Under the pieces are notes generated by a model. That model searched no databases. It saw only the letters and a list, made by a program, of their open reading frames with translations, and was not told the origin of the DNA. Shown here in pieces: positions 4,959 to 58,386 of a stretch of 64,000 nt of DNA (its first letter is position 1; every line of letters starts with the position of its first letter). The translations under genes were made by a program, and so were the position numbers. The DNA is from Candidatus Kaiserbacteria bacterium. Its GTDB lineage: Bacteria; Patescibacteriota; Minisyncoccia; Phycocordibacterales; UBA2100. The stretch covers positions 130,430 through 194,429 of the forward strand of contig CAVYCR010000001.1 in NCBI GenBank assembly GCA_963767115.1, read 5' to 3'.

Positions 4959-6506
4959 ATGCAGCCCATCAGAAACATCCGTACCGATTTCCTACGCACC
5001 AACACGCCCAAGATCCTCTTCGCGATCAATGCGCTCCTCGCGATCACTTATTTCTGCGTCCTCACCTTTTTCTTCCCGGTAGGCAACCGCGTGCTCTTCG
5101 GGCTTTTGATAGCCGGCGAGGTCTACCATCTCTGGCAGGTCTTGACCTTCCTCTACACCGTGTGGGACACGAGCGACCCTGATGCGCCTGATGCCTCGTT
5201 CACACCGTCGGTTGATGTATTTATAACGGTCGCAGGAGAGCCGGTAGAGCTCGTTGAGCGGACCGCGCGCGCAGCACTTGCAATGGACTACCCCGCTTTC
5301 AATGTCTATCTCCTCAACGACGGCTACGTCGCACACAAAGACAATTGGGAGGAAATAGAAGGTCTGGCCGCACGACTCGGTATCGGTTGCATCACGCGCA
5401 CAACTCCCGGCGGCGCGAAGGCCGGCAACATCAACAACGCGCTTACGCTTACAGGAAGCTCGCTCGTCGCTATCTTCGATGCCGATCACGTACCGCATCG
5501 TGACTTCCTCATCAAGACCGCCGGCTATTTCAAAGACCCCAAGATGGGGTTCGTGCAGACGCCACAATTCTATAGCAACTACGCGCGTAACTATCTCACG
5601 ATGAGCTCGTGGGAGCAGCAAGAGATTTTCTTCGGTCCGATCTGCAAAGGCAAAAACAGACTGAATGCCGCCACCATGTGCGGCACCAACATGCTCATCA
5701 GCCGCGGAGCACTTACGTCTGTCGGCGGCATGAATACGCATTCGATCGCCGAAGATTTTGTGACCGGCCTTTTGATGCACGCGAGCGGCTATCGCTCGAT
5801 CTACGTGCCTACGGTCTTGGCTGAGGGTTTGGCGACCGAAGACTTACTCACCTATTCCAAGCAGCAGTTCCGTTGGGGACGCGGCGCTCTCGACGTCATC
5901 TTCCGTTGGAACCCGCTTCTTATGCGCGGCCTTACGTTCGCGCAGCGGATACAGTATCTCTCGTCAGCGAGCTTCTACCTCTCGGGGCTCTTTGTACTGA
6001 TTGATGCAATGTTGCCCGTCGTATTCTTCTACACTGGGCTCGTGCCTGTGCAGGTCGCCGGCATGTTTCTTGCGAGCATCTTCCTGCCGTACTTCTTCCT
6101 CACGCTCTATATGATCGAATACTCGTCGAATTTCACGTTCACCTTCTCGTCGCTGTGCTTCTCGATGGGCAGTTTCTCCATCCAGCTCAAGGCGCTCGGA
6201 AGTGCCTTGACTGGGACCAATGCAAAGTTTGAAATCACTGAGAAGCGCCGCAATAGTCAGATGGGTCAAACACCACAACGCACCTCGTATCTCTCGATCG
6301 TGAAATGGCACATCGTCTACATCGCACTTGTGATCGCCGGCATTCCGATCGCCTACTTGCGCGGGGGATTCTCTGCATCTCTCATCAACAATTGTGCGTG
6401 GGCATTCCTCAACATTGTGATATTCCTACCCTTCATCCGCGCGGCACTTCCGCAACAAGAAGCGTTTTATCAAGAAGAAGCTTCGCCCGCGCTCGCGACG
6501 CGGTAG
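4959..6506 (+). CDS. Cellulose synthase-like processive beta-glycan synthase (GT2, BcsA-like catalytic subunit, no PilZ domain)
   Basis: Motifs FDADHVP (DxD), SIAEDFVTG (TED-type) and QQFRWGRGAL (QxxRW), flanked by N- and C-terminal TM helices. The C-terminus is short and has no RxxxR/DxSxxG PilZ motif. Confidence 0.8.
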   Translation: MQPIRNIRTDFLRTNTPKILFAINALLAITYFCVLTFFFPVGNRVLFGLLIAGEVYHLWQVLTFLYTVWDTSDPDAPDASFTPSVDVFITVAGEPVELVERTARAALAMDYPAFNVYLLNDGYVAHKDNWEEIEGLAARLGIGCITRTTPGGAKAGNINNALTLTGSSLVAIFDADHVPHRDFLIKTAGYFKDPKMGFVQTPQFYSNYARNYLTMSSWEQQEIFFGPICKGKNRLNAATMCGTNMLISRGALTSVGGMNTHSIAEDFVTGLLMHASGYRSIYVPTVLAEGLATEDLLTYSKQQFRWGRGALDVIFRWNPLLMRGLTFAQRIQYLSSASFYLSGLFVLIDAMLPVVFFYTGLVPVQVAGMFLASIFLPYFFLTLYMIEYSSNFTFTFSSLCFSMGSFSIQLKALGSALTGTNAKFEITEKRRNSQMGQTPQRTSYLSIVKWHIVYIALVIAGIPIAYLRGGFSASLINNCAWAFLNIVIFLPFIRAALPQQEAFYQEEASPALATR

Positions 6507-6509
6507 CCT

Positions 6510-8141
6510 ATGGAATCCTCTATGGCCAAGAACTCTACACGTGTATCCGGGCTTCGGGGAATGCTTTTTGCGACCCGAACGATAGGCGGAAGCGCGAAAA
6601 ACATTCCCCGAAGCCTGGTCGGTCGCACGTGGAGCACGAGTCGAACTTTCGTTATTTGCGCGCTCATCGCCTGCATGGCGATACCGATCTTCCTTTCCGC
6701 CTTTTTCTTCATGGGACAGAGCCTGCGACTCGACGAGGCGCAGAGCCTCTGGCAGACATCTCGCAGTTTCGGCGACATTTTCACGGTCGTCGCCGGTGAC
6801 GTGCACGTGCCGCTGTATCACCTCTTACTCAGGTTCTGGCGCCTCTATGTCGGCAACACAGTCACTGATGCACGTGCGCTCTCGTTGCTCTTCTATGTCA
6901 TCTCGATCCCAGTGCTTTACATGCTTGGCCGTAGAGCATATGAAAGCCGCACTGCGCTCTTTGCCACCTTCCTCTTCTCGATCTCGCCGTTTATGAATTG
7001 GTACGGCAACGAAGTGCGCATGTACACGCTCTTCACACTCTTCGTCATACTCAACCAATATTTCTACGTCCGTATTTTCAAAGCCAAAGCAGACGGTGGT
7101 GAACCGAGCGACCATATTTGGGCCGGCTATACACTCACCGCTCTCTTCGGCGCGTTTACACATTATTTCTTCTTTCTCAATTTGCTCGCACAAGCCGTCT
7201 TCTATTTCCTCCGCCGCGACCTCTTCCCTATAGGTTCTCTGAAACGATTTATTTTTGCAGCAGTTATCGTCGTCGGTAGTTTCCTACCATGGGGATGGTA
7301 TGTGCTCCACCTCGGCACTGCCGGCTTCCAAGAGCCCGTCTTAGCGCTCCCCTCTTCGGTTGATTTCTTCAGCGCCTTCGGCCAATTCCTCTACGGTTTT
7401 CAGAACGACAACGTCAACACGGTCTTCCTCTCACTCTGGCCGATCGTAGTAGTGCTTGGGCTCATTTCGCTCAGGCGAAGTCATAGACTCCAAGCAGAGA
7501 GCGAATATTTCCTGCTCACGGTGCTGCTCTCGTTTGCGGTAGCTTTCTTCGGGAGCTTCGTGCTCGCACCCGTTTTCGTGAGCCGCTACCTCATCTTCAC
7601 CATCCCCGCTTTCTACCTCTTGCTCGCGAGTCTCTTTGAAAATTATTCGCCGCGTATGCAAGAGCTGGCGCAATGGGGACTCGCGTGCATTATGATAGCG
7701 ACCCTCGGGCTCGAGATTATCAACCCTACGATGCCCGTGAAAGAAGATTACTCGCAGGCGGTCGCATACATCGACACGCACGCGACCTCGCAAGACAGTG
7801 TGATCCTCTCCGCGCCGTTCACCATCTATCCAGTGCAGTATTACTACACGGGCCAAGCACCAGTAACCACGCTCCCTATATGGAACCAATACGCTTACGG
7901 CGGGATTCCGGCTTTTAGCGCAAGTACGCTTGCCTCACAAGTACAGCAAGACGTCGGTGCGAGTCAAAATATTTATCTCTTGCTCTCGTACAACCAAGGC
8001 TACGAGCTCGACATCAAAAACTATTTCGATTCGCACTATCAAATGGTCTACAGTCAGACCTTCTCTGACGATCTCAATCTCTACGTCTACAAAGCCCGCT
8101 ATGACACGGGCGCAACAGCTATTGCAACCACGTTGAAATAA
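6510..8141 (+). CDS. Polytopic GT-C glycosyltransferase (ArnT/PMT, GT39/83-like)
   Basis: 543-aa multi-TM ORF. The N-terminal loop LRLDEAQSLWQTSRSFGDIF...HVPLYHLLLRFW...NEVRMYTLF resembles the ArnT/PMT family. The start is uncertain (6510 or 6522). Confidence 0.6.
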   Translation: MESSMAKNSTRVSGLRGMLFATRTIGGSAKNIPRSLVGRTWSTSRTFVICALIACMAIPIFLSAFFFMGQSLRLDEAQSLWQTSRSFGDIFTVVAGDVHVPLYHLLLRFWRLYVGNTVTDARALSLLFYVISIPVLYMLGRRAYESRTALFATFLFSISPFMNWYGNEVRMYTLFTLFVILNQYFYVRIFKAKADGGEPSDHIWAGYTLTALFGAFTHYFFFLNLLAQAVFYFLRRDLFPIGSLKRFIFAAVIVVGSFLPWGWYVLHLGTAGFQEPVLALPSSVDFFSAFGQFLYGFQNDNVNTVFLSLWPIVVVLGLISLRRSHRLQAESEYFLLTVLLSFAVAFFGSFVLAPVFVSRYLIFTIPAFYLLLASLFENYSPRMQELAQWGLACIMIATLGLEIINPTMPVKEDYSQAVAYIDTHATSQDSVILSAPFTIYPVQYYYTGQAPVTTLPIWNQYAYGGIPAFSASTLASQVQQDVGASQNIYLLLSYNQGYELDIKNYFDSHYQMVYSQTFSDDLNLYVYKARYDTGATAIATTLK

Positions 8142-9449: not shown

Positions 9450-12398
9450 TTATACAGATATTTTTGTGTTCTCTTCCGTGTTATACGTCATATCAAAGAG
9501 AGTATCGGTCATCCATCGACGGAAGTCGGGGTTATCGCTAAATTGTTTGAAAAGTTCTGCATCGTCCTTAAGAACGGCTGCCATCACACGCTTCAAGGCC
9601 TTATCGTGCTCTATACGAGCATTTTGTTTGTCAGAATGTGTCCTCGCATTCTGATAGGCTTTGTCGGCAACTATACGAGCTGGAATCTCCTGTGTTATAA
9701 GACGACCAACTCGATCACGATCTGTCCAGTCAACACCTCCAAATTGATCATTAAAGACCTTGATGATGTTTGAGAGTCGATCAAGTTCTGGCTCTTGCAT
9801 ATGCCCTCCCCCTGATGTTGGTACAGGTTCAATTTCTCCATTTTCGTTTGGGAGTTGTATCTGTCGTGCGGCTCGCTTTTCGACACGATAACTATCCATA
9901 TCGATTGAATCAAGCACTCCTTTTGCAAAATCTGGATCAATCGGTGCCGGAAGTTTCGATACAAGAAAATTTAGGAGTATTGAAAGCTTTTCCCAGTCGG
10001 CATTTGTGTACGGCAAAATTGAAGAAAGGAAGCCATAAGCACGAACGAATGCTTTTGCTTTACCCTTAAAATCCACCTGGCCGTCCTCATCCAGTTGCTC
10101 CAAGTACACAGCAACGCACGCATCTAATATTGGATCGAGCATGTCACGCTCCGCACCCGATAGATACAATTCTACGAGGCGCTCTACTTGCTCGGTTGAA
10201 TAGACATGGTAGTTATCTAGAGCTGCTTTGAGATCGTGGAGTTTGTTCGGATCCGTTTCTCTACTCAAAATAGTGGTGCGGTAATAAGGTGCGAATGACT
10301 TTTCAATTGTATCTACATCATTAAGAAAATCGAGTACGAACGTGTCGTATTTTTTAGGTCGCGCACGATTGAGACGTGAGAGCGTTTGCACCGCTTTGAT
10401 GCCGGAGAGGGGCTTATCGACATACATAGTGTGCAGTAAAGGCTCGTCGTAACCAGTCTGGAATTTGTCCGCACATATCAAGAAGCGATACGGTTCTTCT
10501 TGTATCTTTTCCACAATACCATTGCTGGGAAATCCATTCAGAGATGCCTCTGTAACCTTCGTGCCGCCATACTCGTGTTCGCCAGAAAAAGCCACAATCG
10601 CTTTATAAGGGCTCTTGAGTTCCTTGAGGTATTCATTGAATGCCTGAAAATACTGAATGGCACGCTCGATGCCACTCGTCACTACCATCGCTCGGGCCAC
10701 GCCACCAATCTTTTTTAAGCCGATAACTTGCTCATGAAAGTGGTCGACCATAATCTCGGCCTTAATACGAATCGCGTGGTCGTGGCTCTCAACGTATTTG
10801 CGAAGCTTCTTCTTTGCCCTTTTGGTATCGTATTCTGGATCACTATCGACTGTTTTTATGAGTTTGTAATAACTGTCGACCGGGGTATAGCTCTTGAGCA
10901 CGTCGAGAATAAAACCCTCTTCGATAGCTTGCTTCATGGTGTAGCTGTGGAAAGGACGATGCTTATTCCCTTCGTATGTCTCGCCAAAGATCTCAAGTGT
11001 CTTGTTTTTCGGTGTGGCCGTAAAAGCAAAGTAGCTTGCATTAGGAAGCATTTTCTTCGCTTCCATGATTCGGTTAATCTTATCTTCAAGGGTCTCATCG
11101 TCCTCACCATCCTCTATTTCTGAGAGTGCCATGCTTACGGCCGCGGACGTTCGTCCACCTTGACTTGAATGTGCCTCGTCTATGATCATTGCGAACTTAC
11201 GATTGCGGTGCTCGTTTCCTATCGCATCGAGAATGAATGGAAATTTCTGAACGGTTGAGATAATAATTTTCTTCTCTTCGGCTATGTACTTCTTTAAGTC
11301 ACCGGAGGAGGCCGCATGCCCAACCGTGGCACTGATTTGCCGAAACCCTTTGATAGTCGCCCCGAGCTGACTGTCAAGCGCTTTACGGTCAGTCACTACG
11401 ATAATGGAATCAAAGATATGGCGATCATCTTTAGCGGTACCAATAAGTTGATGCGCAAGCCACGCGATCGAGTTTGACTTACCGCTACCGGCTGAGTGTT
11501 CAATGAGATAACGTTTTCCCGCTCCATGTGTTGCTACATCGGAGAGAAGTTGGCGCACAACTGCAAGTTGATGGTAGCGGGGGAAAATCTGCACGAGCTT
11601 CTTTTTGTGCGTCTTCTCGTCTTTCACTTCCACCATTTGTGCATAGTTCTCGATAATATCGGTGAGACTGTCGCGAGTGAGTGTTTCATCCCATAGATAG
11701 GAGGTTTTGAGACCACTAGGATTCGGAGGATTGCCTGCACCATCATTCCAACCTTTATTGAATGGTAAGAACCAAGAAGCTTTACCTTGCAGGTGTGGAC
11801 AAAATTGCACTTCACTATCGTCGACCGCAAAATGTGCTATACAACGGCCAAGCTGAAAAAGTATTTCCTTTGGGTTACGATCAGTCTTGTATTGTTCAAC
11901 TGCATCTGAAACAGTCTGTTTGGTTAGGCTGTTCTTTAATTCAAAAGTGGCAATCGGAAGTCCGTTTATAAATAGCGCAAGATCTAGCGCGCGTTGCATT
12001 TCATCGAGACTATAGCGAAGTTGGCGCGTAACACTGAATCGATTTTTCTCGTACCGGCCCTTTGCAGTTGTATTGCCAGGGGTTGGGGTACCATAAAAAA
12101 GATCGATGTGATATTGACCATGCTTTACACCATGTCGCAACACGTCCACAACTCCTCGTTTAGCAATCTCACCCTGTAACCGTGTAAGAAATTGTCGTCG
12201 AATGGGACTATCATTGCTAAGGTCGAGTATGTTGAAGAGTTCCTCTTGAGTAGCGTGGATAAAAGCCTGCAATTGTACAGGATCTACCGCAAAAGCCCGA
12301 TCATAGTCATCAGGCTTTCCGAGGTTCCATCCGCCCAATGCTGTTAAATGCTCAATTATTAAGGTTTCGAGGCCTTTTTCGCTTGTATCTGTTTTCAT
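9450..12398 (-). CDS. hsdR: Type I restriction endonuclease subunit R
   Basis: 982 aa. N-terminal nuclease region, DEAD/helicase motifs (IEHSAGSGKSNSIAW Walker A, MIIDEAHSSQGG DEAH box), and operon position downstream of hsdM-hsdS with a 4-nt overlap. Confidence 0.9.
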   Translation of the reverse strand: MKTDTSEKGLETLIIEHLTALGGWNLGKPDDYDRAFAVDPVQLQAFIHATQEELFNILDLSNDSPIRRQFLTRLQGEIAKRGVVDVLRHGVKHGQYHIDLFYGTPTPGNTTAKGRYEKNRFSVTRQLRYSLDEMQRALDLALFINGLPIATFELKNSLTKQTVSDAVEQYKTDRNPKEILFQLGRCIAHFAVDDSEVQFCPHLQGKASWFLPFNKGWNDGAGNPPNPSGLKTSYLWDETLTRDSLTDIIENYAQMVEVKDEKTHKKKLVQIFPRYHQLAVVRQLLSDVATHGAGKRYLIEHSAGSGKSNSIAWLAHQLIGTAKDDRHIFDSIIVVTDRKALDSQLGATIKGFRQISATVGHAASSGDLKKYIAEEKKIIISTVQKFPFILDAIGNEHRNRKFAMIIDEAHSSQGGRTSAAVSMALSEIEDGEDDETLEDKINRIMEAKKMLPNASYFAFTATPKNKTLEIFGETYEGNKHRPFHSYTMKQAIEEGFILDVLKSYTPVDSYYKLIKTVDSDPEYDTKRAKKKLRKYVESHDHAIRIKAEIMVDHFHEQVIGLKKIGGVARAMVVTSGIERAIQYFQAFNEYLKELKSPYKAIVAFSGEHEYGGTKVTEASLNGFPSNGIVEKIQEEPYRFLICADKFQTGYDEPLLHTMYVDKPLSGIKAVQTLSRLNRARPKKYDTFVLDFLNDVDTIEKSFAPYYRTTILSRETDPNKLHDLKAALDNYHVYSTEQVERLVELYLSGAERDMLDPILDACVAVYLEQLDEDGQVDFKGKAKAFVRAYGFLSSILPYTNADWEKLSILLNFLVSKLPAPIDPDFAKGVLDSIDMDSYRVEKRAARQIQLPNENGEIEPVPTSGGGHMQEPELDRLSNIIKVFNDQFGGVDWTDRDRVGRLITQEIPARIVADKAYQNARTHSDKQNARIEHDKALKRVMAAVLKDDAELFKQFSDNPDFRRWMTDTLFDMTYNTEENTKISV

Positions 12399-13801
12399 AT
12401 TGTAATTTTCTCGGCCTCTTTAGAAACGTCATCTGTGGGTTCTTCAGCATCGCTACCATACAACGAGCTATCGCCCTCGTCCATGACTGCGGTAGATTGC
12501 GTCTGCTCTGGCAATTTTGATGCGGCTTCGCGTACATCAAGTTTGCCAGTGACCACATCAGTAACTACGTGAATACGAAACTCATGCAGAAGTTGTATTT
12601 CATTATCAAATAGCTGTAATTGTCTTTCAATTTCCGATAATTCTTGATCTAGCGTCGCGACGATTTTTTCTTGCTCCGGCAATGACGGTATTGGGACTCT
12701 CACATTTTTGAGCCATGGCATATGTATATCGCGCTGTATATCACCAACACCTTTCGACGCGGTGACAAACTGCGATACCATTATTCTCGACTTAAATAGG
12801 TAGTCGGCAAATCTCGGTAACAGAGATGAATCTAAGCCGAGGACCACATAAGCAGGGCTAATGATGCCTAGATATTCAGATACCCCAACAGAGCCACGCC
12901 ATGCTTGTTGATTATTAAGAACAAGATCACCCGGCTTGACTACCTGATAGCCAGACAAATCAAGACTCGGTTTATGAACCTGTCCTCCCCCCTCTCCGTA
13001 ACGAATCACACCCCTACCCAGGAATACCGAGAGAAGATCTAGATCGGTTCGACCTTTTTCCGTTCTAATCCGGGAAATTTCCCATAACCTTGAAATCTTC
13101 CATTCGGAATTTACTTCTTGTTCAGGCGACGATCCGAGGAGTTTCGTCTTTATCTTTGGATCAAGACCGTGAGTAACTACATGACTAACAACATTTTTCT
13201 TTTGTTCCTCTAACAATTTGATTAACTGTTGCTTCGCGTGTATGTATTGTCGGATGCGCCGATCGGCATAGTTGAGAAAACGAATTATTGCGGATTGCTC
13301 ATCATAGGGAGGGAGCGGAACAGGCTGGTTCCCAAAATCTTCAAACCGAAAGTCTGTAGACCTCTCGCGAATACCTTTAGATAAAGCCAGTATCCATTGT
13401 GTACGCGCCATCTCTCGTATAACGTACGCAAAGTATTCTGAAGTGGCCTCCTCAGTTGGCTGACACACTGCGCAAACAGGACTACATTTTCCATTTGAAT
13501 CAGATACACCCACCGCGCCAGCAAAAGCGTCCATCGCATGGATCACAAGATCTCCCTTTAATACCCGCTGATAGCCGATCTCTTGTAGTGCCTCAGTAAA
13601 ACCACGCAGTCGACGATTGCGCCGCAATGTTACGGTGCCATCACGAAAACATGTCACAATCTCATCCCCTGCCTCTACAGGCCTCGAGACTTTGTTAAAA
13701 AGCCATTTAGCTCGTTTGATGCCCCAGTGTTCTGGTATTTCTCCGAGCCACACCACGGCCGAGTCTTTGTATCTTGAATAGGGCTTGAGATCTTTAATCA
13801 T
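12395..13801 (-). CDS. hsdS: Type I restriction-modification specificity subunit S
   Basis: 468 aa with two target-recognition-domain halves separated by conserved coiled-coil spacers (SLPEQEKIVATLDQEL, PPYDEQSAIIRFLN). It lies between hsdM and hsdR. Confidence 0.85.
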   Translation of the reverse strand: MIKDLKPYSRYKDSAVVWLGEIPEHWGIKRAKWLFNKVSRPVEAGDEIVTCFRDGTVTLRRNRRLRGFTEALQEIGYQRVLKGDLVIHAMDAFAGAVGVSDSNGKCSPVCAVCQPTEEATSEYFAYVIREMARTQWILALSKGIRERSTDFRFEDFGNQPVPLPPYDEQSAIIRFLNYADRRIRQYIHAKQQLIKLLEEQKKNVVSHVVTHGLDPKIKTKLLGSSPEQEVNSEWKISRLWEISRIRTEKGRTDLDLLSVFLGRGVIRYGEGGGQVHKPSLDLSGYQVVKPGDLVLNNQQAWRGSVGVSEYLGIISPAYVVLGLDSSLLPRFADYLFKSRIMVSQFVTASKGVGDIQRDIHMPWLKNVRVPIPSLPEQEKIVATLDQELSEIERQLQLFDNEIQLLHEFRIHVVTDVVTGKLDVREAASKLPEQTQSTAVMDEGDSSLYGSDAEEPTDDVSKEAEKITI

Positions 13802-13807
13802 GAAGTG

Positions 13808-15982
13808 CTATCCTTTCGCGATAATTTCATCGAGCAATCCTTCTGTTTCTTTCTCCAATTTAAGGATGTCCCCCTGAATCTCTGTCAGAGGACGTAACGG
13901 TTCCGGTTTGAAGAAATAACGGTTGAAATTGATCTCATATCCAAGTTTGGTCGCACCTTCTGTGGTCCAGGCATCAGGCGCATATGGAAGTACCTCACGC
14001 TTAATAAAATTTTCGATGCCTCCCTTTTCTAACAAAGGCACTTGTTCGTAGTCACGAAGCTCAACATCCGGCTCGTACTCGACGACACTTTTGTTGCTAT
14101 GTATCTCGATTTCAAAAAAACCGTGTAATGGATCGACCTTTGTGAGGGACTTGTGGACTTGTTTGATCACCGGTTCTGCATCCGGATCACGTTCAGCGAG
14201 CACAGTTTGCAAAAACTTAAGACGCTTTGCAGACATCTTAACCTTATTCTCCTTAGCGATACTATCAACTATTTCTAAAAACTTTTGGTAATCCATATGC
14301 GGACCAGTTCCGATTTCCTTCACAACCTTCTCGATGATGGGGACAAGTTGTTCCTCCCCCGCATCTACGCATGCTACGCGAAAACGCTTGAGATGTCCGT
14401 TGCGGAGATCAACCTTTAGTCGTAATGGCCGTTCAATCATGACTTTCCAATAGCCAAATTCCTCATTCGGAAAGATTTTCGATTGTTTGGTCTCCTTGAA
14501 AGAGAGAAAAGTATCCATCACACTCTTTATATTCTCGTCAGTGAGCTCACAGTTCTTTTTGCCCATATTCTTGCGTAACGGTGTAAACCAGCCATTTGTA
14601 TCAATGAGCTGTACTTTGCCCTGGCGTTTGCTTTCTTTACGATTTGAAAGCACCCAAATATAGGTTGCGATACCAGTGTTATAGAACATGTTAAGCGGAA
14701 GTGCCACAATCGCTTCAAGCCAGTCGTTCTCAAGGATCCAGCGACGTATATTACTTTCACCTTGCCCCGCATCACCAGTGAATAGTGAGGAGCCGTTGTG
14801 AACTTCTACAATGCGACTTCCGAGTTTAGTGTCATGCTTCATCTTTGAGAGCATGTTGGCAAGAAAGAGCATCTGCCCATCGCTTGAGCGCGTGACTAAG
14901 GAATACTCCGGATCACCTGCGTGTTCGATGATAAAACGAGGGTCCTTAATGTTCGTTTTCCCACCCATTTTCTCCATATCGCTCTTCCAGCTTTTCCCGT
15001 AAGGGGGGTTCGACAACATGTAGTCAAAACGCATATTAGAGAACGCATCGTTCGTGAGAGTCGAGTATTTGGGACCACCAATGATGTTGTCCGCCTCGTC
15101 GCCGTCACCTTTTAGAAGAAGATCTGCTTTACAGATCGCGTATGTCTCAGCATTGATCTCTTGCCCGTAGAGATGCGTGACTACTTCTTTCTTTCGCTTT
15201 ATTGCGATCTGCTCTAGTGTTTCTTCAGCGACAGTAAGCATGCCGCCGGTCCCTATGGCACCGTCATAGAGAAGATAAGTTCCTGACTCAATTTTATCGG
15301 CGATGGGTCTGAACACCAGCTCAGCCATAAGCTTGACCGCATCACGTGGCGTCCAATGCTCTCCCGCCTCCTCATTGTTTTCTTCGTTGAATATACGCAC
15401 CAATTCCTCGAAGATCGTCCCCATACCGTGGTTGTCGAGGCGCTTGTGCTTGCGTGTACCATCGGGATTAATGACAGCGCGCGGACTGAGATTGATAGAT
15501 GGGTCTAAAAACTTTTCTATGAGCGTACTGAGGACATCAGCATCAGACAAAGTGGATATTTGATTTCGGAATTTAAAGTTGTTTAAAATCTCTTGCACGT
15601 TCGGAGAAAAACCGTCGAGGTACGCCTCAAAATCTTGGCGTAATGCTTGTTGCGTAGTACTTGCGCGTAGATTCTTAAGCGTAAACGGAGAATGATTATA
15701 AAACGCTTGGCCCGCCGCAGATCGCAAAGCATTTTCCTGATTTACTATTCGTGCTTTATCGAGACGCTTTTTTGCATCTATTACGGACTGTTTTGTATCC
15801 TCAAGAACTGCATCAAGGCGACGGATGATGATCATAGGTAAAATTACGTCGCGGTACTTACCGCGCACATAAAGGTCTCGGAGAACATCGTTTGCAATGC
15901 CCCAAATGAAATTTGCTACCCAATGCAGGTCACCGTTTGTCAGAGCTTCATCCTGTTGCGGATTTTCCTTTAAAGAAGACAT
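13808..15982 (-). CDS. hsdM: Type I restriction-modification N6-adenine DNA methyltransferase subunit M
   Basis: HsdM N-terminal domain (FIWGIANDVLRDLYVRGKYRDVILPMIIIRRLD), an AdoMet motif (LYDGAIGTGGML) and the catalytic LSNPPYGKSW (NPPY) motif. Confidence 0.9.
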   Translation of the reverse strand: MSSLKENPQQDEALTNGDLHWVANFIWGIANDVLRDLYVRGKYRDVILPMIIIRRLDAVLEDTKQSVIDAKKRLDKARIVNQENALRSAAGQAFYNHSPFTLKNLRASTTQQALRQDFEAYLDGFSPNVQEILNNFKFRNQISTLSDADVLSTLIEKFLDPSINLSPRAVINPDGTRKHKRLDNHGMGTIFEELVRIFNEENNEEAGEHWTPRDAVKLMAELVFRPIADKIESGTYLLYDGAIGTGGMLTVAEETLEQIAIKRKKEVVTHLYGQEINAETYAICKADLLLKGDGDEADNIIGGPKYSTLTNDAFSNMRFDYMLSNPPYGKSWKSDMEKMGGKTNIKDPRFIIEHAGDPEYSLVTRSSDGQMLFLANMLSKMKHDTKLGSRIVEVHNGSSLFTGDAGQGESNIRRWILENDWLEAIVALPLNMFYNTGIATYIWVLSNRKESKRQGKVQLIDTNGWFTPLRKNMGKKNCELTDENIKSVMDTFLSFKETKQSKIFPNEEFGYWKVMIERPLRLKVDLRNGHLKRFRVACVDAGEEQLVPIIEKVVKEIGTGPHMDYQKFLEIVDSIAKENKVKMSAKRLKFLQTVLAERDPDAEPVIKQVHKSLTKVDPLHGFFEIEIHSNKSVVEYEPDVELRDYEQVPLLEKGGIENFIKREVLPYAPDAWTTEGATKLGYEINFNRYFFKPEPLRPLTEIQGDILKLEKETEGLLDEIIAKG

Positions 15983-18179: not shown

Positions 18180-18281
18180 TCGTGAGCCGACTGGTTTTTG
18201 GGGTCGATGCCTCGCGGCGGCGCGAAATAGAGTTCTTTTTCAGCAGAAAAAGAACGACCCCAAAAGCCAGTCGGCTCACGA
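18180..18281. repeat. Long foldback element A (26-27 bp arms, 48-nt interior with nested hairpin)
   Basis: Arms 18181-18206 cgtgagccgactggtttttggggtcg and 18255-18280 cgaccccaaaagccagtcggctcacg are complementary except for one T/G position. The interior contains gttcttttt-cagcag-aaaaagaac. Confidence 0.8.
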
Positions 18282-19245: not shown

Positions 19246-19259
19246 GGTGCTCGCGTGTC

Positions 19260-19430
19260 GGCCGGAACCTCTGGCATCTCTCTTTGCGAACATGCCGCGA
19301 TAGCTTGCGGCACGACCCCTAAAACAAAAAGCGCCTTGCTAGGCGGTTTTTGTTTTCCACTACTCTATGACGTGGGAATGTGACATCTGCTGCGCGAGGT
19401 TCGCAAAGAGAGATGCCAGAGGTTCCGGCC
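19260..19430. repeat. Foldback element B (conserved-core family; 32-bp perfect arms; embedded bidirectional terminator)
   Basis: Arms 19260-19291 and 19399-19430 are perfect reverse complements. The inner 9 nt of each arm (tttgcgaac / gttcgcaaa) and the 107-nt interior are shared, in inverted orientation, with the elements at 27770-27934 and 51626-51794. The interior hairpin aaaacaaaaagcgcc-ttgcta-ggcggtttttgtttt (19321-19357) is terminator-like on both strands. Confidence 0.85.
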
Positions 19431-19443
19431 CTAGATACCATAG

Positions 19444-20610: not shown

Positions 20611-20939
20611 TTTTATAAAGGACAAGTTATCCACACCTATGTCCTTTACAATGTCCTTTAACACGATATTCTTACCACCAGTCGTTCTTCATCATTCTTT
20701 CGCTGTTCAACAACAACGAAATACATAAAGGTACAAAATACCTCAATACAAACAAAAATGTTACGGCCGCCTCTGCAGCCGATTGGATTCGAACGTATTT
20801 TGTCGATATTGTAATTTCGCGCTCTTTCTTGAAGGGCAAAGGATGAAACACTAAGGCGTCTTGTAATGGCAACTTCTCAAATAGAGAAACGAGGAGCTGC
20901 CATACGCAAGACGCCTTTTTATATTTGGTACATAACAGA

Positions 20940-21059
20940 GGGCCGCCTGGCCTGACAGTTACTTTTTCATTCGAGGACCGAACCCGCAGACCGCGAAGCG
21001 GGCGTGAGGGCGCTATGCGTCCCGCAGAATGAAAAAGTAACTGTCAGGCCAGGCGGCCC
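20940..21059. repeat. Long foldback element C (33-bp perfect arms, 54-nt GC-rich interior)
   Basis: 20940-20972 gggccgcctggcctgacagttactttttcattc is the exact reverse complement of 21027-21059. It lies 28 nt downstream of the cca stop (minus strand). Confidence 0.8.
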
Positions 21060-23786: not shown

Positions 23787-23857
23787 TCGGGCTGCTGGGA
23801 ATCGAACCCAGTCTACATGGTCCCAAACCATGCGTACTACCGGTATACGACAGCCCG
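23787..23857 (-). tRNA. tRNA-Pro (anticodon TGG)
   Basis: Reverse strand: acceptor CGGGCTG/CAGCCCG, anticodon arm CATGG-TTTGGGA-CCATG, T arm CTGGG-TTCGATT-CCCAG, discriminator A. No encoded CCA. Confidence 0.85.
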
Positions 23858-25896: not shown

Positions 25897-26068
25897 TGGC
25901 AATTCGCCACGTCGCAGGGGTTTTGCAAACTGTTCGTACTTGCCCAAGTGACGTACCTAAAAAATTATCAAGGTGAAGCCTTGATAATTTTTTCTACTGC
26001 CAATTTCATAGCCGTCTCTTTTTCGCTGCGCGAGGTTCGCAAAACCCCTGCGACGTGGCGAATTGCCA
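25897..26068. repeat. Foldback element D (variant of the conserved-core family; 34-bp arms, 1 mismatch)
   Basis: Arms 25897-25930 and 26035-26068 are complementary except for one A/C position. It shares the termini ttttgcaaac ... gctgcgcgag-gttcgcaaaa with element B but has a different interior hairpin, aaaaaattatcaagg-tgaag-ccttgataatttttt. Its right arm abuts the rny stop codon at 26069. Confidence 0.8.
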
Positions 26069-27602
26069 CTATCTCGCGTATTCGATCACGCGTGTCTCGC
26101 GGATAACGCTCACTTTGATTTCGCCCGGATATTGCATCTCTTCTTGAATCTTGTCGGCGATGTCACGTGCGATCTTGCGCGCGTCGAGGTCGGTGACGTT
26201 TTCGGGCTTCACAATGACGCGGATCTCGCGACCGGCCGCTATCGCGTAACTCTTGTCGACGCCGGGAACGTTGTTGGCGATCGCTTCGAGTTCTTCGAGG
26301 CGCTTGATGTAGTTCTCGACGCTGTCGCGGCGCGCGCCGGGGCGGCCGCCGGAGATCGCATCGGCGACCTGCACGATCATGCTTTCGGGCGTCTCGTACG
26401 GATATTCCTCATGGTGTGCTTGCATAGCTTTTACGACTCGCTCGTCGACGCCGAACTTCTGCAAGTATACGACGCCCGATCTCGACGTGAGTGCCCGGCA
26501 CTTCGTGGTCGACTGCCTTGCCGATATCGTGAAAGAGCGCGCCGGCGCGTGCGATAGCAGGATCGGCACCAAGCTCCTCGGCAAGCATGCCTGCGAGGTG
26601 TGCGACTTCGACTGAGTGGTCGAGGACGTTTTGGCCGTAGCTCGTACGGAAGTAGAGGCGGCCGAGGATCATGATGAGCTTCGGGTCGAGGTCGGGGACG
26701 CGTGCGGCGTACGCTGCCTCCGCGCCTTTCTTCTTGATGATGGTGTTGATCTCAGCTTCGGCTTTCTGCACGGCCTCTTCAATCTTCGCGGGTTGGATAC
26801 GACCGTCGAGAATGAGATTCTCAAGCGCGATGCGCGCGACCTGGCGGCGTATCGGATCGTATGAGGAGAGGGTAATGGTGCCCGGCGTATCATCGACGAT
26901 GACGTCGACGCCGGTGGAGCGCTCGAATTGGCGGATATTGCGGCCTTCCTTGCCGATGATCTTGCCCTTGATCTCGTCGTTGGGAAGCGTGACGGTCGTT
27001 GCAAGTACATCTGAGACGACGGAATTGCCGAGGCGATGCACGGCGGTCGTGAGGATTTCCTTGGCGCGCTGCTCAAGGCGCTGGTCGCCCGAGATCTCAA
27101 GCTTGCGCATGCGGCTCTCGATGTCGCTCTCGTAGCGGCGTTCGACTGCTTTGATCAGCTCTGACTTCGCGTCATCAGCCGAGAGATTGGCGATGCGCTC
27201 GAGTTGTTCTTGCTGGCCGCGCGCGGCTTCCTCGAGAGCCTGGCGTGCCGCTGAGAGATCCTCGTTCTTGCGGGCGAGGTTTTCCTGTTCGGCATCGAGG
27301 TTGGTCTGGCGATTATCGAGCAATTCTTCCTTGCGGACGAGGCGTTCCTCGACGCTCTTGAGCCCGCGCTCGCGCTCTTTGAATTCGTCGCCGATCTCAC
27401 GGGCTTTTTCTTCGGCACGGGCCTGTGAATCTTCGGTGATCTGCTTTGCCTTTTCTTCGGCGTCAAGCATCATCTTGCGGACTTGCAGCTCCATCGAGCC
27501 GCGTTTGCCGAGACTAATAATATATCGGAGAAAGTAGCCTATTCCGACGCCCGCCAAACCCACAAGGGCGAGAAGAGCGAGCAAAAGTTTGACTGAAATC
27601 AT
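26069..27602 (-). CDS. rny: Ribonuclease Y; reading frame broken once (+1) as sequenced
   Basis: N-terminal TM segment, coiled coil, KH domain (IKGKIIGKEGRNIRQFE) and HD domain (ALFHDIGKAVDHEV) are in ORF 26409..27602. The remainder (QKFGVDERVVKAMQAHHEEYPYETPESMIVQVADAISGGRPGAR...) is in ORF 26069..26584. The junction is near 26458-26466. The span is 1534 nt, i.e. 3n+1. Confidence 0.85.
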
Positions 27603-27769: not shown

Positions 27770-27934
27770 GCCGCCGCTCTGGTTAGGTGTTTGCGAACCT
27801 CGCGCAGCAGATGTCACATCCCCACGTCATATAGTAGTGGAAAACAAAAACCGCCCAGCAGGGCGCTTTCTGTTTTGAGGGTCGGTATCTAAGCTATTGC
27901 GGTATGTTCGCAAACACCTAACCAGAGCGGCGGC
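27770..27934. repeat. Foldback element E (conserved-core family; 29-bp perfect arms)
   Basis: Arms 27770-27798 and 27906-27934 are perfect complements. The 107-nt interior is near-identical to those of elements G and B (B inverted). It ends 5 nt from the clpP stop (minus strand). Confidence 0.85.
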
Positions 27935-32185: not shown

Positions 32186-33575
32186 TTATTCAGTCTCTGT
32201 CTTCGGTTCGACATCGACCTCAGAAGGCTCTTCGCCGCCACCCTGGTCGGTCTCTGCGTTGACGGCATCCGACGGGACGTCGCGGTCTTGGTTGATGGCT
32301 TCGGCGTTCTCGACACCAGTGTCAGCTGCTTCGTCATCGTCACCGGAAATATCCGACTTCGCTTCGGCGAACGCGTCCTGCGTGTTGATCGAACCTTCAT
32401 CGGTTATTTCCAGTACGGGCACGGTGCTTTCAACGGGAGTCTCGGCCTTCGGCGCGACAGTAGCGACTGATTCGCCGCCGACGCCGCGAATGTCGATCTT
32501 CCAGCCGGTAAGCCGTGCCGCCAAGCGGACGTTCTGCCCGCCGCGGCCGATTGCGAGCGACTGCTGGTCTTCGTCGACCTGTACGATCGCGCGGCTTTCA
32601 TCTTCAAAGAGCTCGATGTCGAGAATCTGTGCGGGCTTGAGCGCTTCTTTGACGATAATCGCCCGCGTTTTCGCTCCATTCCACGACGTCGATCTTCTCG
32701 CCGCCGAGCTCCGAGGTGACGACCGCGACGCGCACGCCGCGCTGGCCGACCAAGGCGCCGACCGGGTCGACGTGCTCATCGTGAGCTCTTGACCGCGATC
32801 TTGGCGCGACTTCCCGGCTCGCGTACGATGCCCTTGACCTCGACGACGCCACTTGCCATTTCGGGCACTTCGGTCTCGAAGAGTTTCGCCAAGAAGCGCG
32901 GGATGCGAGCGAGAAAGACGGATGAAGGTGCCGCGAGCGCCTTCGTCGACGCGCAAGAGCAGCGCGCGGACGCGCTCTCCTTGGCGATACCGCTCGCCGG
33001 GGATCTGCTCGTCGTAGGGGAGGATGGCGGTCGCGCGGCCGAGGTCGATGAAGAGATTGCCGCGCTCGAAGCGCTGCACATGGCCGGTGACGATCTCGCC
33101 TTCGCGCATCGCCGTACTCCTCGATGATAGAAGCGCGCTCGGCTTCGCGGATCTTCTGCATGATCACTTGCTTCGCCGCTTGCGCGGCGATGCGGCCGAA
33201 ATCGTCTCGCGTCTCGAGGGGGAAGGAGATCTCCTCGTCGAGCTGCGCGTCGCGCTTGATGCGACGTGCGTCCTCGATCATGATGTGCTGCTCGGGGTTG
33301 AAGCGGGAGCGGTGGTCTTCGTCGCTCTTCTGCTCTTCGTCTTCGCGGCGCACGAGCGTGTCGTCGACGACGATCTTGGCCTGGCGGAACTCCATGTCGC
33401 CGGTCTCGGGGTTAAACGTTGCGCTGACAATTTGTCCGCGCTTGCCGTATTCGCGGCGGTAGGCGGCGGCGAGCGCCGTAGCGAGCGCTTCAACCACGCT
33501 TTCGCGGCTGATGCCGCGCTCGGCCTGCAGCTCGTCGAGCGCGCCGTTTAGTGTCTTGAGGTCAAAAAGTGCCAT
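32186..33575 (-). CDS. nusA: Transcription termination/antitermination factor NusA; reading frame broken four times (+1 each) as sequenced
   Basis: Successive conserved NusA segments sit in rotating frames: N-terminal domain to REAERASIIEEYGD | REGEIVTGHVQRFERGNLFIDLG (S1) ...SRSHP | FLAKLFETEVPEMASGVVEVKGIVREPGSRAKIAVK | HDEHVDPVGALVGQRGVRVAVVTSELGGEKIDVVEWSENA | IIVKEALKPAQILDIEL...LAIGRGGQNVRLAARLTGWKIDI (KH2) plus an acidic tail. Junctions lie near 33103-33112, 32896-32903, 32781-32790 and 32660-32668. The span is 1390 nt, i.e. 3n+1, which fits four extra nt. Confidence 0.85.
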
Positions 33576-34153: not shown

Positions 34154-35909
34154 ATGTACATTTCTGACACGCATCTCAAATCCTTTCTCGCTGACGCGGG
34201 TCTTGTCTCCGCAAAAGACTTCGACGCCGCAGAAAAAGAAGCGAAAGACGGCGGCAAGACAGTCGGCGATGTCTTGACCGCCAAGAACGTGATCGGCGAA
34301 GACGAACTGCGCCGCACGTACGCATACATCCTCGGCATCCCGTTCGTCTCGCTCTCTGGCACGATGATCAAATACGACACGCTCTCGCTGATCCCCGAGC
34401 CGGTCGCGCGTCGCAACAACATCATCGCCTATAGCAAGAAGGCCGACGAGCTCGAAGTAGCGATGCTCGACACCGACGACCTCGCCGCGATCGACTTCAT
34501 CAAGAAGAAGACGCGGCTCAAGGTGCTCCCGAGGCTCACCGACGCCGCCTCGATCAAGACGGCGCTCAAGCTCTACCAGCAGGGACTCAAGGACAACCTT
34601 GGCGACGTGATCGAGCGTGAGACGGCAGCGCTCGCGCAGTCTGCCGCCGCTGCGGGCTCCGGCGAGGCAAAGGAAGAGGAGCTCAAGCTCGCCGAGGGCG
34701 TGCCCGCGGTGCGTATCGTCGACACGTTGCTGCGCCACGCCAACGCGCAGGGCGCCTCCGACATCCACATCGAGCCATTGGAGGGCTCACTCCTCATCCG
34801 GTATCGCATCGACGGCATCCTGCATGACGCGATGGAGCTGCCCAAGCACGCCGCCGCTGCTGATGACTGCGCGCATCAAGGTACTCGCGAGCATGAAGCT
34901 CGACGAGAAGCGTCTTCCCGCAAGATGGCCGCTTCACCGCCGAGGGTGACGGAGAGAAAGTCTCTTTCCGCGTCTCGATCTTGCCGACGTACTTCGGAGA
35001 GAAGATCGTCATGCGCTTGCTGCGCGACAACGTCTCGGGCTTCACGCTCGAGTCGGTCGGCTTCCATGGCACTCGCGCTCGAGCGCATGCATGAAGCGGT
35101 GCAAGAAAACGACCGGCCTGATACTCACCACGGGCCCCACCGGCGCGGGCAAATCGACGACACTCTACACGCTCCTCGACATCGTCAACACGCCGAACGT
35201 GAACATCTCCACCATCGAAGACCCGATCGAATACCAAATGGCGCGCGTCAACCAGACGCAGGTGCGCCCCGAGATCGGCTTCACCTTCGCACAAGGCTTG
35301 CGCGCGCTCGTACGCCAAGACCCAGACATCGTCATGGTCGGCGAGATCCGCGACAAAGAGACGGCAAGCCTCGCGGTCAACGCCGCACTCACCGGGCACT
35401 TGGTGCTCTCTACTCTTCACACCAACTCTGCGGCGGGTGCTGTGGCGCGCTTGCTCGACATGGGTATCGAGCCCTTCTTGCTCGTCTCGACCTTGCGGAT
35501 CATCATCGGCCAGCGCCTCGTGCGCAAGCTTGATGCCACCAAGGAGAAATACGAACTCTCGCGCGACGAGCAGGGGAGCTTGGAGCGCGTAGTCGATCAA
35601 GGTGTCGTCTTGAAAGCGCTCAAGGATGAGAAGATCGTGCCCGCAACCGCCACTTGGAAAAACGTGCCGTTCTTTCACCCTAAGGTAAGCGAAGAACACC
35701 CGTCGGGATACACCGGCCGCGTCGGCATCTACGAAGTATTACCCGTCACCTCGACCATCAAGGAACTGATCATGAGTAACGGCACCGGCGATATGATCGA
35801 GGCGCAAGCGCGCAAGGAAGGTATGCTCTCCATGAGCGAAGACGGAATCTTCAAAGCCGCTCAAGGTGTCACTACTATTGAGGAAGTGCTGCGTGTAATC
35901 ACGGAATAG
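34154..35909 (+). CDS. pilB: Type IV pilus assembly ATPase PilB (GspE family); reading frame broken four times (+1 each) as sequenced
   Basis: N-terminal T2SSE_N-like domain to [21 protein letters not shown] | [20 protein letters not shown] | [50 protein letters not shown] | [10 protein letters not shown] | [23 protein letters not shown] (Walker A) ...[12 protein letters not shown]...LVLSTLHTN. Junctions lie near 34856-34863, 34916-34922, 35066-35072 and 35098-35104. The span is 1756 nt, i.e. 3n+1. Confidence 0.85.
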
Positions 35910-48061: not shown

Positions 48062-48174
48062 TACATCCTCCACTAGTACTCTTGAACGGTATAGTCCGAA
48101 GCCATTTAAGCACATAAAAATGAGCGTCGCTATGCGCGAGCACCTCTGGATTGAGAGCCTCGACAGTTTTGGGT

Positions 48175-50326: not shown

Positions 50327-50438
50327 CTGCCCCGTCCCAACCCCATTATGCCGGCTACGCAGGCCCGGCGGGGCCGAGTCCGAGCGCTGGGCGAGCACGC
50401 CCAGATAGCGACGGCATAATGGGGTCGGGACGGGGCAG
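50327..50438. repeat. Long foldback element F (27-bp arms with one A/C position, 58-nt GC-rich interior)
   Basis: 50327-50353 ctgccccgtcccaaccccattatgccg pairs with 50412-50438 cggcataatggggtcgggacggggcag. It starts 7 nt after the recJ stop. Confidence 0.8.
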
Positions 50439-51625: not shown

Positions 51626-51794
51626 CAGAAACGTAAGCAGTGCGGTGTTTGCGAACCTCGCGCAGTAGATGTCACATCCCCACGTCATACAGTAGTGGAA
51701 AACAAAAACCGCCCAGCAGGGCGCTTTTTGTTTTGAGGGTTTTCACATGACTCATCGCGGTATGTTCGCAAACACCGCACTGCTTACGTTTCTG
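51626..51794. repeat. Foldback element G (conserved-core family; 31-bp perfect arms)
   Basis: Arms 51626-51656 and 51764-51794 are perfect complements. The interior is near-identical to element E. It starts 9 nt after the RNase H stop. Confidence 0.85.
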
Positions 51795-58029: not shown

Positions 58030-58386
58030 ATGCAAAGCAAGAAGGATTCGGTTACCAACGAGAAAATATTCGGTCTCCTCTTGGATATGGATGAACGTAT
58101 CACGTCAATGGACGAGCGCATTGCCTCAATGGACGAGCGCATTACATCTATGGACGAGCGCATTATATCTATAGATGGACACGTTAATTCCATTGATGAG
58201 CGGATGGCAACCAAGGCCGATCTTCGCGAGTACGCCACCAAGAATGATCTTGAACGATTCAGGGATGAGATCCTTAAGGAAGTACGACCGCTCCATAGGG
58301 CGGTCGATACGGATGCCGAGACCATTATCGACCATGGCAGGCGCATTACCGCTCTCGAAAAACACGCAGGCATCGCGCCCCGATAA
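58030..58386 (+). CDS. Hypothetical coiled-coil protein with 7-aa tandem repeats
   Basis: MDERI[TA]S occurs four times, followed by two degenerate units (21-bp tandem repeats at 58087-58212). The start is taken at the ATG at 58030. Confidence 0.5.
   Translation: MQSKKDSVTNEKIFGLLLDMDERITSMDERIASMDERITSMDERIISIDGHVNSIDERMATKADLREYATKNDLERFRDEILKEVRPLHRAVDTDAETIIDHGRRITALEKHAGIAPR

Follow-up and report, generated by a model that had tools for sequence, protein, structure and literature searches.

Dispersed terminator hairpins with a common core and private arms in a Kaiserbacteria-like bacterium: a tentative case for arms made by snap-back DNA synthesis

Dispersed bacterial repeats are normally recognised by stems that their copies have in common. 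In a 64,000-nt stretch of DNA from a Kaiserbacteria-like bacterium (contig CAVYCR010000001.1, positions 130,430 to 194,429; hereafter the window), the arrangement is the opposite one: three copies of a hairpin element, called A, B and C here, have a common loop, and each has a stem that is private to it. Such copies raise the question of where the private stems come from and how they stay complementary. In a preliminary description of this DNA, the three loci had been placed and their outer arms recognised as unrelated between copies and perfectly self-complementary within each; the arms were thought to be made anew at each insertion, either by entry of the element into pre-existing palindromes or by snap-back copying of the flank. 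The analysis reported here points, with somewhat less than even confidence, to a terminator hairpin resembling a miniature transposable element with inverted repeats (MITE), in which snap-back (template-switch) DNA synthesis both makes the arms and renews them.

The pattern TTTGCGAAC-N(90-120)-GTTCGCAAA is matched three times in the window, spanning 125 nt each time, and in none of 100 dinucleotide shuffles. When the two 9-mers are extended outward, perfect Watson-Crick arms of 23 nt (A), 20 nt (B) and 22 nt (C) are obtained, by which exactly the three intervals placed earlier are recovered (Table 1), and the arms have no 11-mer in common with each other or with other parts of the window, which bears out the earlier view of them as unrelated yet self-complementary. 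The unit common to the three copies is the 125-nt core, with pairwise identities of 110/125 (A/B), 107/125 (A/C) and 111/125 (B/C) and, at its ends, a 9-bp perfect terminal inverted repeat that reaches about 17-20 bp when imperfect pairs are counted; the same 9-bp repeat is found in the element of a relative, locus L017, and is 1 nt off in a diverged fourth member of the window, copy D, and in the element of locus L117. Neither a G-T pair nor a mismatch is present among the 89 base pairs in the arms of copies A to D. The three main copies lie just past the stop codons of a gene for an Xer-type recombinase (A, 14 nt beyond the xerC-like stop codon at 19245), of clpP (B, 5 nt) and of an RNase H gene (C, 8 nt), within the 5-15 nt given previously, and copy C ends 25 nt ahead of a comEC-like start codon. 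The predicted folds are very stable compared with shuffles, at -100.2 kcal/mol for copy B as RNA (z = -13.3) and -60.3 kcal/mol for copy C as DNA (z = -11.3). The copies are no assembly artefact, because the left arm and the first part of the core recur in an independent Logan contig that breaks off within the repeat, and related elements occur in several independent assemblies.

In the interior of copies A to C, a central hairpin, CGCCC-AGCA-GGGCG, with a 5-bp GC stem and an AGCA loop, is flanked by A- and T-runs; in each of the three copies, both strands of this hairpin are called terminator-like by consensus match, in agreement with the bidirectional intrinsic terminator that had been proposed for the interior. 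In copy A, the loop-closing pair of this hairpin differs from that of B and C by a double change, C-G to T-A. Placed just 3' of stop codons, the elements could end transcription from either side. Cores vary chiefly within 29 nt on the 3' side of the terminator, where identity is 55-66%, against 94-96% in the left segment and the central hairpin; over the first 87 nt, B and C differ at three positions, the number of substitutions that had been counted by hand over the early core. The hypervariable segment (19292-19320 in A, 27877-27905 in B, 51735-51763 in C) has features of its own in each copy, namely a 6-bp hairpin, TGCCGC..GCGGCA, in A, a direct repeat, CGGTAT..CGGTAT, in B, and a small palindrome, ATGAnTCAT, in C, and these features suggest local templated remodelling.

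Table 1. Positions of the hairpin elements, their parts and their terminator-like hairpins in the window
Feature	Position	Strand	Remarks
Copy A, whole hairpin element	19260..19430	-	core inverted relative to B and C; 23-nt perfect arms
Copy A, parts	left arm 19260-19282; TTTGCGAAC 19283-19291; interior 19292-19398; GTTCGCAAA 19399-19407; right arm 19408-19430		
Copy A, bidirectional terminator-like hairpin	19321..19356	.	called on both strands
Copy B, whole hairpin element	27770..27934	+	20-nt perfect arms; 5 nt past clpP stop codon (27940, minus strand)
Copy B, parts	left arm 27770-27789; core 27790-27914; right arm 27915-27934		
Copy B, bidirectional terminator-like hairpin	27841..27876	.	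AAAACAAAAACCGCCCAGCAGGGCGCTTTCTGTTTT
Copy C, whole hairpin element	51626..51794	+	22-nt perfect arms; 8 nt past RNase H stop codon (51617)
Copy C, parts	left arm 51626-51647; core 51648-51772; right arm 51773-51794		
Copy C, bidirectional terminator-like hairpin	51699..51734	.	called on both strands
Copy D, diverged fourth member	25897..26068	-	found by inverted-repeat scan; 24-nt perfect arms
Copy D, parts	arms 25897-25920 and 26045-26068; TTTTGCAAAC 25921-25930; GTTCGCAAAA 26035-26044		
Related long-stem hairpin	18180..18281	.	27-nt arms, 1 transition mismatch; 48-nt core containing AGCA-loop hairpin
Related long-stem hairpin	20940..21059	.	33-nt perfect arms, 54-nt core; insertion relative to L123 and L113
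Related long-stem hairpin, '54-nt family'	50327..50438	-	27-nt arms, 1 transition mismatch; starts 7 nt past recJ stop codon

Syntenic loci of relatives, obtained through look-ups of the proteins that flank the elements and given L numbers here, include filled as well as empty sites. Copy A is absent in L123 and L113, copy B in L123, and copy D in L122 (RNase Y 88% identical; 34-nt spacer) and in L123; the long-stem hairpin at 20940-21059 is likewise absent in L123 and L113. L117-L120 carry an orthologue of the L017 element at the corresponding site (flanking protein 85% identical), and this site is empty in L126 (flanking protein 79-81%) and L129 (73-77%); the identity matrix assigns the insertion of this element to the common ancestor of L017 and L117. 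Two other hairpin elements (L126a and L126b) stand directly after gatB in L126, where L117 is empty. At none of the clearly empty orthologous sites is a long palindrome found, whether at the position of A (L123, L113), of D (L122, L123), of the hairpin 20940-21059 (L123, L113), of the L017/L117 element (L126, L129) or of L126a/b (L117); at the copy B site in L123, there is a short imperfect hairpin. Insertion into a pre-existing palindrome of 40-60 bp is therefore disfavoured, and the copy-specific arms of 20-24 bp would be neither carried by the element nor pre-existing palindromes. The comparison of filled with empty sites, which the preliminary description had named as the way to check arms made de novo, leaves that idea standing; of the two routes to such arms offered there, the one through palindromes loses ground, and the one through snap-back copying gains support at one site.

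This site is that of the L117 element. The empty L126 site reads TAG/CGGTTTCGC-TTGGTGAGGAG, and the filled L117 site reads TGA-TACCT-(GCGAAACCG-CCCCGATTTTG-core-CAAAATCGGGG-CGGTTTCGC)-TTAGCGAGAAG. The outer 9 nt of the L117 right arm are the native sequence of the empty L126 site, those of the left arm are the reverse complement of this native sequence, and an unguided MAFFT alignment places the empty L126 site onto the outer right arm of L117. The signature expected of a template-switch hairpin, one native arm together with an inverted copy of it, is present for the outer 9 bp of the L117 arms when compared with the empty sites of L126 and L129. The site lengths at A and D are compatible with a net gain of the core plus about one arm.

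A different state is seen at the copy A site of the nearest relative, L131, which comes from the same sample as L122. Right after the xerC stop codon (L131 2305-2345, orthologous to about 19246-19440 of the window), the sequence TAG-TGCGCCGC-TTTGCAC-ATCAGAGT-GTTCGCAAAA has both end motifs with 8 nt between them and neither complementary arms nor a long palindrome; across the rest of 270 kb of Kaiserbacteria loci, the exact 9-mer is confined to elements, apart from one match in L132 that is probably due to chance. The motif pair may have been left by a deletion, or it may represent a proto-site or a target motif. Core A is 94% identical to B and C over the well-conserved part, and by this measure it is far younger than the split from the L131 lineage; either the site has been invaded again, or other copies overwrite the cores. 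A reading of the L131 mini-palindrome as a dif/Xer (IMEX-like) site was considered and is unlikely, with xerC about 28 kb from dnaA (window 46562-48115) and the other copies not near xer genes.

The fate of the arms after insertion can be followed in orthologous elements. Between L017 and L117, 12 arm pairs are shared in register; 8 of them are unchanged, the other 4 have a new base on each side and still pair, and one-sided changes are absent. Identity in the left arm (8/12) is close to that in the core (51/74) and at the 4-fold sites of the adjacent gene (225/362, or 62%). In a second orthologous pair, from the 54-nt family (L117 145-238 and L017 2237-2331), 15 arm pairs are unchanged, with 3 double and 2 single changes. 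The two pairs together give 7 double and 2 single changes in 32 arm pairs, the coupled two-sided pattern with few one-sided changes that marks template switching, and these counts are far from what independent evolution of both sides would leave. Since the arms have diverged and are still paired across about 38% synonymous-site divergence, complementarity is kept over time. The earlier proposal that the arms are made at insertion is thus too narrow if a one-off event is meant, because orthologous arms go on to diverge with pairing maintained.

Private stems are not confined to the three main copies. Copy D has the 18-mer CTGCGCGAGGTTCGCAAA in common with A to C and an otherwise different interior, with a bidirectional terminator of its own at 25959-25993, and it begins immediately past the stop codon of an RNase Y gene that carries a frameshift. 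This gene (26069-27602, minus strand) is split into open reading frames (ORFs) at 26409-27602 and 26069-26584, where relatives have a single protein of 510 aa, which may be due either to a frameshift or to an indel error; the genes for NusA (32186-33575) and a PilB-like ATPase (34154-35909) also look split, which hints at indel errors in the assembly.

Three further long-stem hairpins of the window (Table 1) have other cores. The one at 18180-18281 is homologous to element L126a of the relative (L126 7689-7800; alignment score 56, against a shuffle maximum of 22); in L131 (289-1311), cas1 lies directly upstream of xerC, where the window has a GH6 glycosyl hydrolase gene and this hairpin. The one at 50327-50438 matches the profile of the 54-nt family with an nhmmer E-value of 1.8e-18, being itself a member of that profile, which recovers five members in all (the others are two in L117, one in L126 and one in L017). 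The layout of this family is GTCGCTRTCT, a 7-bp hairpin with a TGCT loop, AGCGCTC..TCTCG, a 5-bp hairpin and CTGCGAA; both small internal hairpins covary, and the outer arms are copy-specific. Homology of the focal family to the 54-nt family or to the hairpin 20940-21059 is not significant. The families, which have no significant sequence homology to one another, agree in architecture: the outer arm is private, and with it go a T-run, an inner inverted repeat that is short and conserved, and a core that is asymmetric and, in most families, contains an AGCA- or TGCT-loop hairpin. Total stem lengths in the window are 27-34 bp, and this genome also has many perfect terminator stems of 11-16 bp. 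Seven mismatches are found in long-stem hairpins of this kind (6 in arms and 1 in the end motif of copy D), and all are transitions.

A similar extension is seen on a gene that belongs to none of these families. In L113, the acceptor stem of tRNA-Pro(TGG) (6497-6596) is lengthened by 15 bp of flank complementarity into a perfect inverted repeat of 22 bp, an extension that is absent in the orthologous genes of L123 (13649-13719) and the window (23787-23857). Lineage-specific perfect stem extension therefore occurs on at least two other core families and on one tRNA gene besides the focal family, and a general process that extends stems on any hairpin nucleus seems to be at work in some of these lineages; L123, a locus that shares 21 kb of synteny with the window, has no perfect inverted repeat with arms of at least 16 nt. 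Private pairing is also observed at other scales. In L017, two near-loopless palindromes (6778-6814 and 7469-7509) have the inner 15 nt, CCCATTTAGGACACG, in common, and their outer ends differ yet pair (AAG/CTT and TAGCA/TGCTA), a conserved inner and private outer part at smaller size. The element L117a (L117 145-238) lies inside an outer 10-bp inverted repeat, GCATGTTTGA...TCAAACATGC, at 126-135 and 259-268, with unpaired spacers of 9 and 20 nt to the element and an imperfect version at the L017 orthologue; this nesting may reflect insertion into an older hairpin or layered growth of a palindrome. A conserved hairpin with 11-bp arms and a 43-nt loop containing CTTCTCAAATAGAGAAA, followed by a T-run, is located between the exonuclease and CCA-adding enzyme genes (window 20853-20917); its stem sequence differs in the window, L123 and L131 with pairing kept, and it may be a structured RNA or a terminator, with no Rfam match at gathering thresholds in the window.

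In the snap-back reading of these data, the terminal inverted repeat would fold back during DNA synthesis and nucleate an intrastrand template switch, in which the nascent strand, serving as its own primer, makes a reverse-complement copy of the flank next to it. One arm would then be native flank and the other its inverted duplicate, and later switches would re-copy one arm onto the other, so that the arms drift and stay Watson-Crick paired. Template switching is an established source and repair of perfect hairpin stems and can produce multi-base compensatory changes in one event (PMC8794818). It would explain the empty sites without a palindrome, the inverted copy of the flank and the coupled arm changes and, further, why young copies contain no G-T pairs, why a tRNA stem was extended and why direct target duplications are missing. 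The anatomy of the elements, the empty sites without palindromes, the one case of native flank with its inverted copy and the coupled arm changes are observed; a replication mechanism, arm formation with or soon after insertion, and a terminator function are inferred. The core might owe its spread to a transposase that acts in trans, to template switching between hairpins or to conversion between them. That the hairpins spread and rebuild themselves purely by replication template switching, without a transposase, a nascent strand copying a core from another hairpin and then snapping back on the terminal repeat of this core to copy its own flank, so that a terminator hairpin with a site-specific stem is made in one event, is an extension of the reading that is less likely than not but has a real chance; the chance that the spread of the elements or the making of their arms follows a new mechanism is of similar size.

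Several observations weigh against snap-back synthesis or lie outside its account. The assignment of one arm to native flank is clean at one site alone, where the outer 9 of 20 arm nt are traceable; the other 11 nt, on the inner side of the L117 arms, match nothing at the empty sites that were compared. For copies A, B and D, the arms have no significant similarity to the spacers of relatives (p = 0.2-0.95 against shuffles for B and D), in a test that is low-powered because 4-fold sites are 58% identical to the nearest relative; matches of arms to native spacer found by eye (CTCTGG..TTA, GGCA) were no better than shuffles and were dropped. At the hairpin 20940-21059, relatives have nearly no spacer, so that neither 33-nt arm can be present local flank. 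The arms (80% identical) and core (87%) of the orthologous 54-nt family pair are conserved above synonymous (4-fold) sites (62%), by which selection may also act on them, and the two motifs in L131 could be a target motif and not a remnant. The total stem length of 27-34 bp in the window is, moreover, rather uniform for undirected mutation. Snap-back synthesis leaves this narrow range, the inner part of the L117 arms and the two arms of the hairpin 20940-21059 unaccounted for.

The uniformity of the stems would fit a dedicated enzyme (a transposase, nuclease or polymerase) which inserts the core and synthesises an inverted target duplication of 20-30 bp by foldback insertion, an explanation that is also in keeping with the complete 20-24-bp arms of all four young or perfect copies, with the sharp end of inter-copy identity at the 9-bp ends and, equally well, with the native flank and its inverted copy in L117 compared with L126. 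Nevertheless, no gene for a transposase, reverse transcriptase or HUH-family enzyme is found in Pfam scans of 40 ORFs of the 64-kb window, unrelated cores and a tRNA gene have stems extended just as perfectly, and arms continue to change in a coupled manner long after insertion; moreover, no enzyme is known to produce inverted target duplications of this length, and a dedicated enzyme is regarded as rather unlikely. Slightly less weight is given to the view that the hairpins are old and locus-specific and the cores young, having been homogenised or swapped by conversion or inter-locus template switching through the conserved 9-18-bp ends. The mosaic identity of the cores (94-96% in the left segment and terminator against 55-66% in the right segment), the two end motifs kept by the nearest relative at the copy A site, and a core A closer to B and C than 58% synonymous-site identity to the nearest relative would permit, all fit with conversion of this kind, which nonetheless leaves the origin of each hairpin and its arms unexplained, requires conversion over homology tracts as short as 9-18 bp, and is at odds with the gain of whole elements on the timescale of relatives as close as 88-89% amino-acid identity, in which copy D and 20940-21059 are absent.

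Entry of the core into the loop or centre of existing hairpins such as terminators, as in a palindrome- or hairpin-targeting MITE with old stems for arms, would account for the position of every element where a terminator usually stands, in a genome with many perfect terminator stems, and could draw on the short hairpin at the copy B site in L123 and on the nesting of L117a in an outer repeat. It is improbable given that no palindrome of 40-50 bp is present at any empty orthologous site examined, that the arms are longer than native terminators and do not have their form of A-run, GC-stem and T-run, and that the copy B arm resembles the L123 hairpin no more than expected by chance. Still less probable, by a small step, are functional RNA helices kept perfect by selection, either as RNase III or stabilising stems or as the closing helix of a multi-copy small RNA. 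The very stable predicted folds, the covarying internal hairpins of the 54-nt family with its core conserved above synonymous sites, and mismatches that are transitions in 7 of 7 cases, which is compatible with tolerance of G-U on one strand, would agree with such helices; but the elements are in mixed orientation to the flanking genes (3/5 independent focal copies inverted, 2/5 direct), none of the 89 arm pairs of A to D is a G-U pair, the transition mismatches put G-T on different strands relative to transcription, and no Rfam match is found. In addition, the internal bidirectional terminator would halt transcripts ahead of the second arm from both directions, which makes an RNA-level reason for perfect arms weak. 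The spacer-like length of the arms (20-33 nt) could recall captured foreign sequences, a memory stored in hairpins, or the guides of a system like TIGR or bridge RNA. This idea is largely refuted and very remote, since none of the four arms has an exact match in IMG/VR, the elements have no box C motif and no tandem arrays, the scanned ORFs contain no Nop-domain gene, part of one arm is native flank, and orthologous arms drift without turnover.

Among known systems, the elements are closest in function to MITE- or repetitive extragenic palindrome (REP)-type terminator hairpins. Bacterial MITEs such as Correia/NEMIS, RUP and Nezha are likewise non-coding, multi-copy, intergenic units of about 100-200 bp with terminal inverted repeats, which fold into long hairpins and often carry or create terminators or promoters. 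In known MITEs, however, the whole stem belongs to the element, is common to all copies and is flanked by direct target-site duplications, whereas in the present elements the inner 9 bp alone are common, the outer 20-24 bp of the stem are copy-unique, and the flanks are inverted instead of direct repeats. No abutting direct repeat of at least 2 nt is found in 13/14 elements, the remaining one, L017, having 4 nt; a 9-bp direct target duplication in L017 (TGATTTCGT / CGGTCTCGT) was considered and rejected, with 6/9 positions matching directly and 6/8 in inverted orientation and nothing similar at the other copies. The REP/BIME/REPIN sequences mobilised by RAYT transposases are, like the present elements, extragenic palindromes; they form clusters 3' of genes and act in termination or mRNA stability, but they have a conserved stem with a GTAG-type motif; here the stem is the variable part, outer stems have no common 11-mer, and no RAYT (Y1 HUH) gene is present among the window ORFs scanned. 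The elements work like MITE/REP-type terminator hairpins and lack the direct duplications and the shared stem that define those families. The earlier statement that they represent no described MITE, REP or non-coding RNA class stands for the shared stem, the direct duplications and Rfam, which gives no family at gathering or permissive thresholds, and has to be tempered by their MITE-like terminal inverted repeats. In the window, four tRNAs alone pass the Rfam gathering thresholds, and permissive scans of the elements give nothing other than sub-threshold generic hairpin matches.

IS1397 and ISKpn1 insert into the loops of REP sequences. These insertion sequences and the IS110 family resemble the present case in that inserted DNA lies between two hairpin halves, but they target existing conserved palindromes, and the empty sites here have no such palindrome. 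Template-switch quasipalindrome mutations (Monttinen and Loytynoja 2022, PMC8794818) also involve a reverse-complement copy of adjacent sequence and a stem made in one event; they are described as sporadic changes in rRNA and other genes and in Escherichia coli and yeast reporters, not as a dispersed-repeat family with stems of 20-33 bp. The stem-loop arrays of TIGR systems in phages and parasitic bacteria have 'variable but consistently palindromic' stems (PMC12045711), and thus a conserved interior with variable self-complementary flanks. TIGR units are nevertheless tandem, yield RNAs of about 36 nt with box C/D and stand beside a Tas (Nop-domain) gene, whereas the elements are dispersed, have 165-172 bp and have no box C motif and no Tas gene nearby; the TIGR reading was rejected on an RTGATGA motif missing from every element, no tandem array at the elements and no Nop-domain match. 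Integron attC sites have conserved outer R''/R' boxes around a variable centre and are linked to an integron integrase and attI; a reading as attC sites was set aside because the architecture is reversed, with a conserved inner part and variable outer arms, and the adjacent recombinase is the housekeeping Xer protein. A retron msr-msd reading, which calls for a1/a2 inverted repeats around a non-coding RNA and a directly adjoining reverse transcriptase gene, was rejected as well, since no reverse transcriptase adjoins any copy and the RVT_3 match beside copy C is the RNase H domain.

The host is a Kaiserbacteria-like member of the Candidate Phyla Radiation (CPR). In databases, the 120 closest homologues of the window's Xer protein show 80-87% identity to it; several bear the names Kaiserbacteria or Paceibacterota, and no closer strain is recorded. 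The ClpP protein, looked up as an exact sequence, returned no record. When the exact 18-mer TTTGCGAACCTCGCGCAG, which is common to all four copies, was used as a census query, IMG/VR gave 3 matches, all by chance, 185,579 GTDB species representatives gave 36, a single one of them real (L017), and the JGI metagenomes gave 70, of which 2 are real and both identical to L017. This locus belongs to Candidatus Kaiserbacteria RIFCSPHIGHO2_02_FULL_55_25, and its element (5945-6062) lies 9 nt past a stop codon and has 13-nt perfect arms and a 74-nt interior. The family, as defined by the exact 18-mer, is rare and so far limited to Kaiserbacteria.

Other features of the window and of the compared loci were recorded alongside the elements. 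A complete type I restriction-modification operon (hsdR, hsdS, hsdM) occupies 9450-15982 on the minus strand, and a 21-nt tandem repeat, TATGGACGAGCGCATTACATC, present in 4.1 copies at 58086-58172, is the sole tandem array of the window; it is unrelated to the elements, and arrays of the CRISPR or TIGR type are absent. In each of four lineages (L017 6130-6450, L117 12440-12700, L126 2830-3100 and L129 12270-12500), the stretch downstream of the O-antigen ligase gene contains a strongly conserved non-coding region, GTGGGTGCCACAAnCTGTGGC...GGAGGGCGGCGGCACTCACATAAGACTTTCACTTTTTGGAGCTCGC..., with a TATATAnT box ahead of it; this region resembles an RNA gene and has no Rfam match.

With a private stem and a common loop, elements of this type would be missed or wrongly delimited by standard finders of repeats and MITEs, and they are a practical source of contig breaks in CPR assemblies, as seen in the Logan contig that ends inside the repeat. 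For the organisms themselves, the elements appear, from their sequence, to provide bidirectional terminators to very compact CPR genomes. If the arms are snap-back products, they would be a rare natural record of template-switch mutation first creating long perfect hairpins and then keeping them paired, and would bear on how stems in RNA and DNA arise and remain complementary. Spread by template switching without a transposase, if true, would be a previously undescribed form of DNA mobility and give a natural view of the birth of hairpins, and a dedicated enzyme making inverted target duplications of 20-30 bp would, if true, be equally new.

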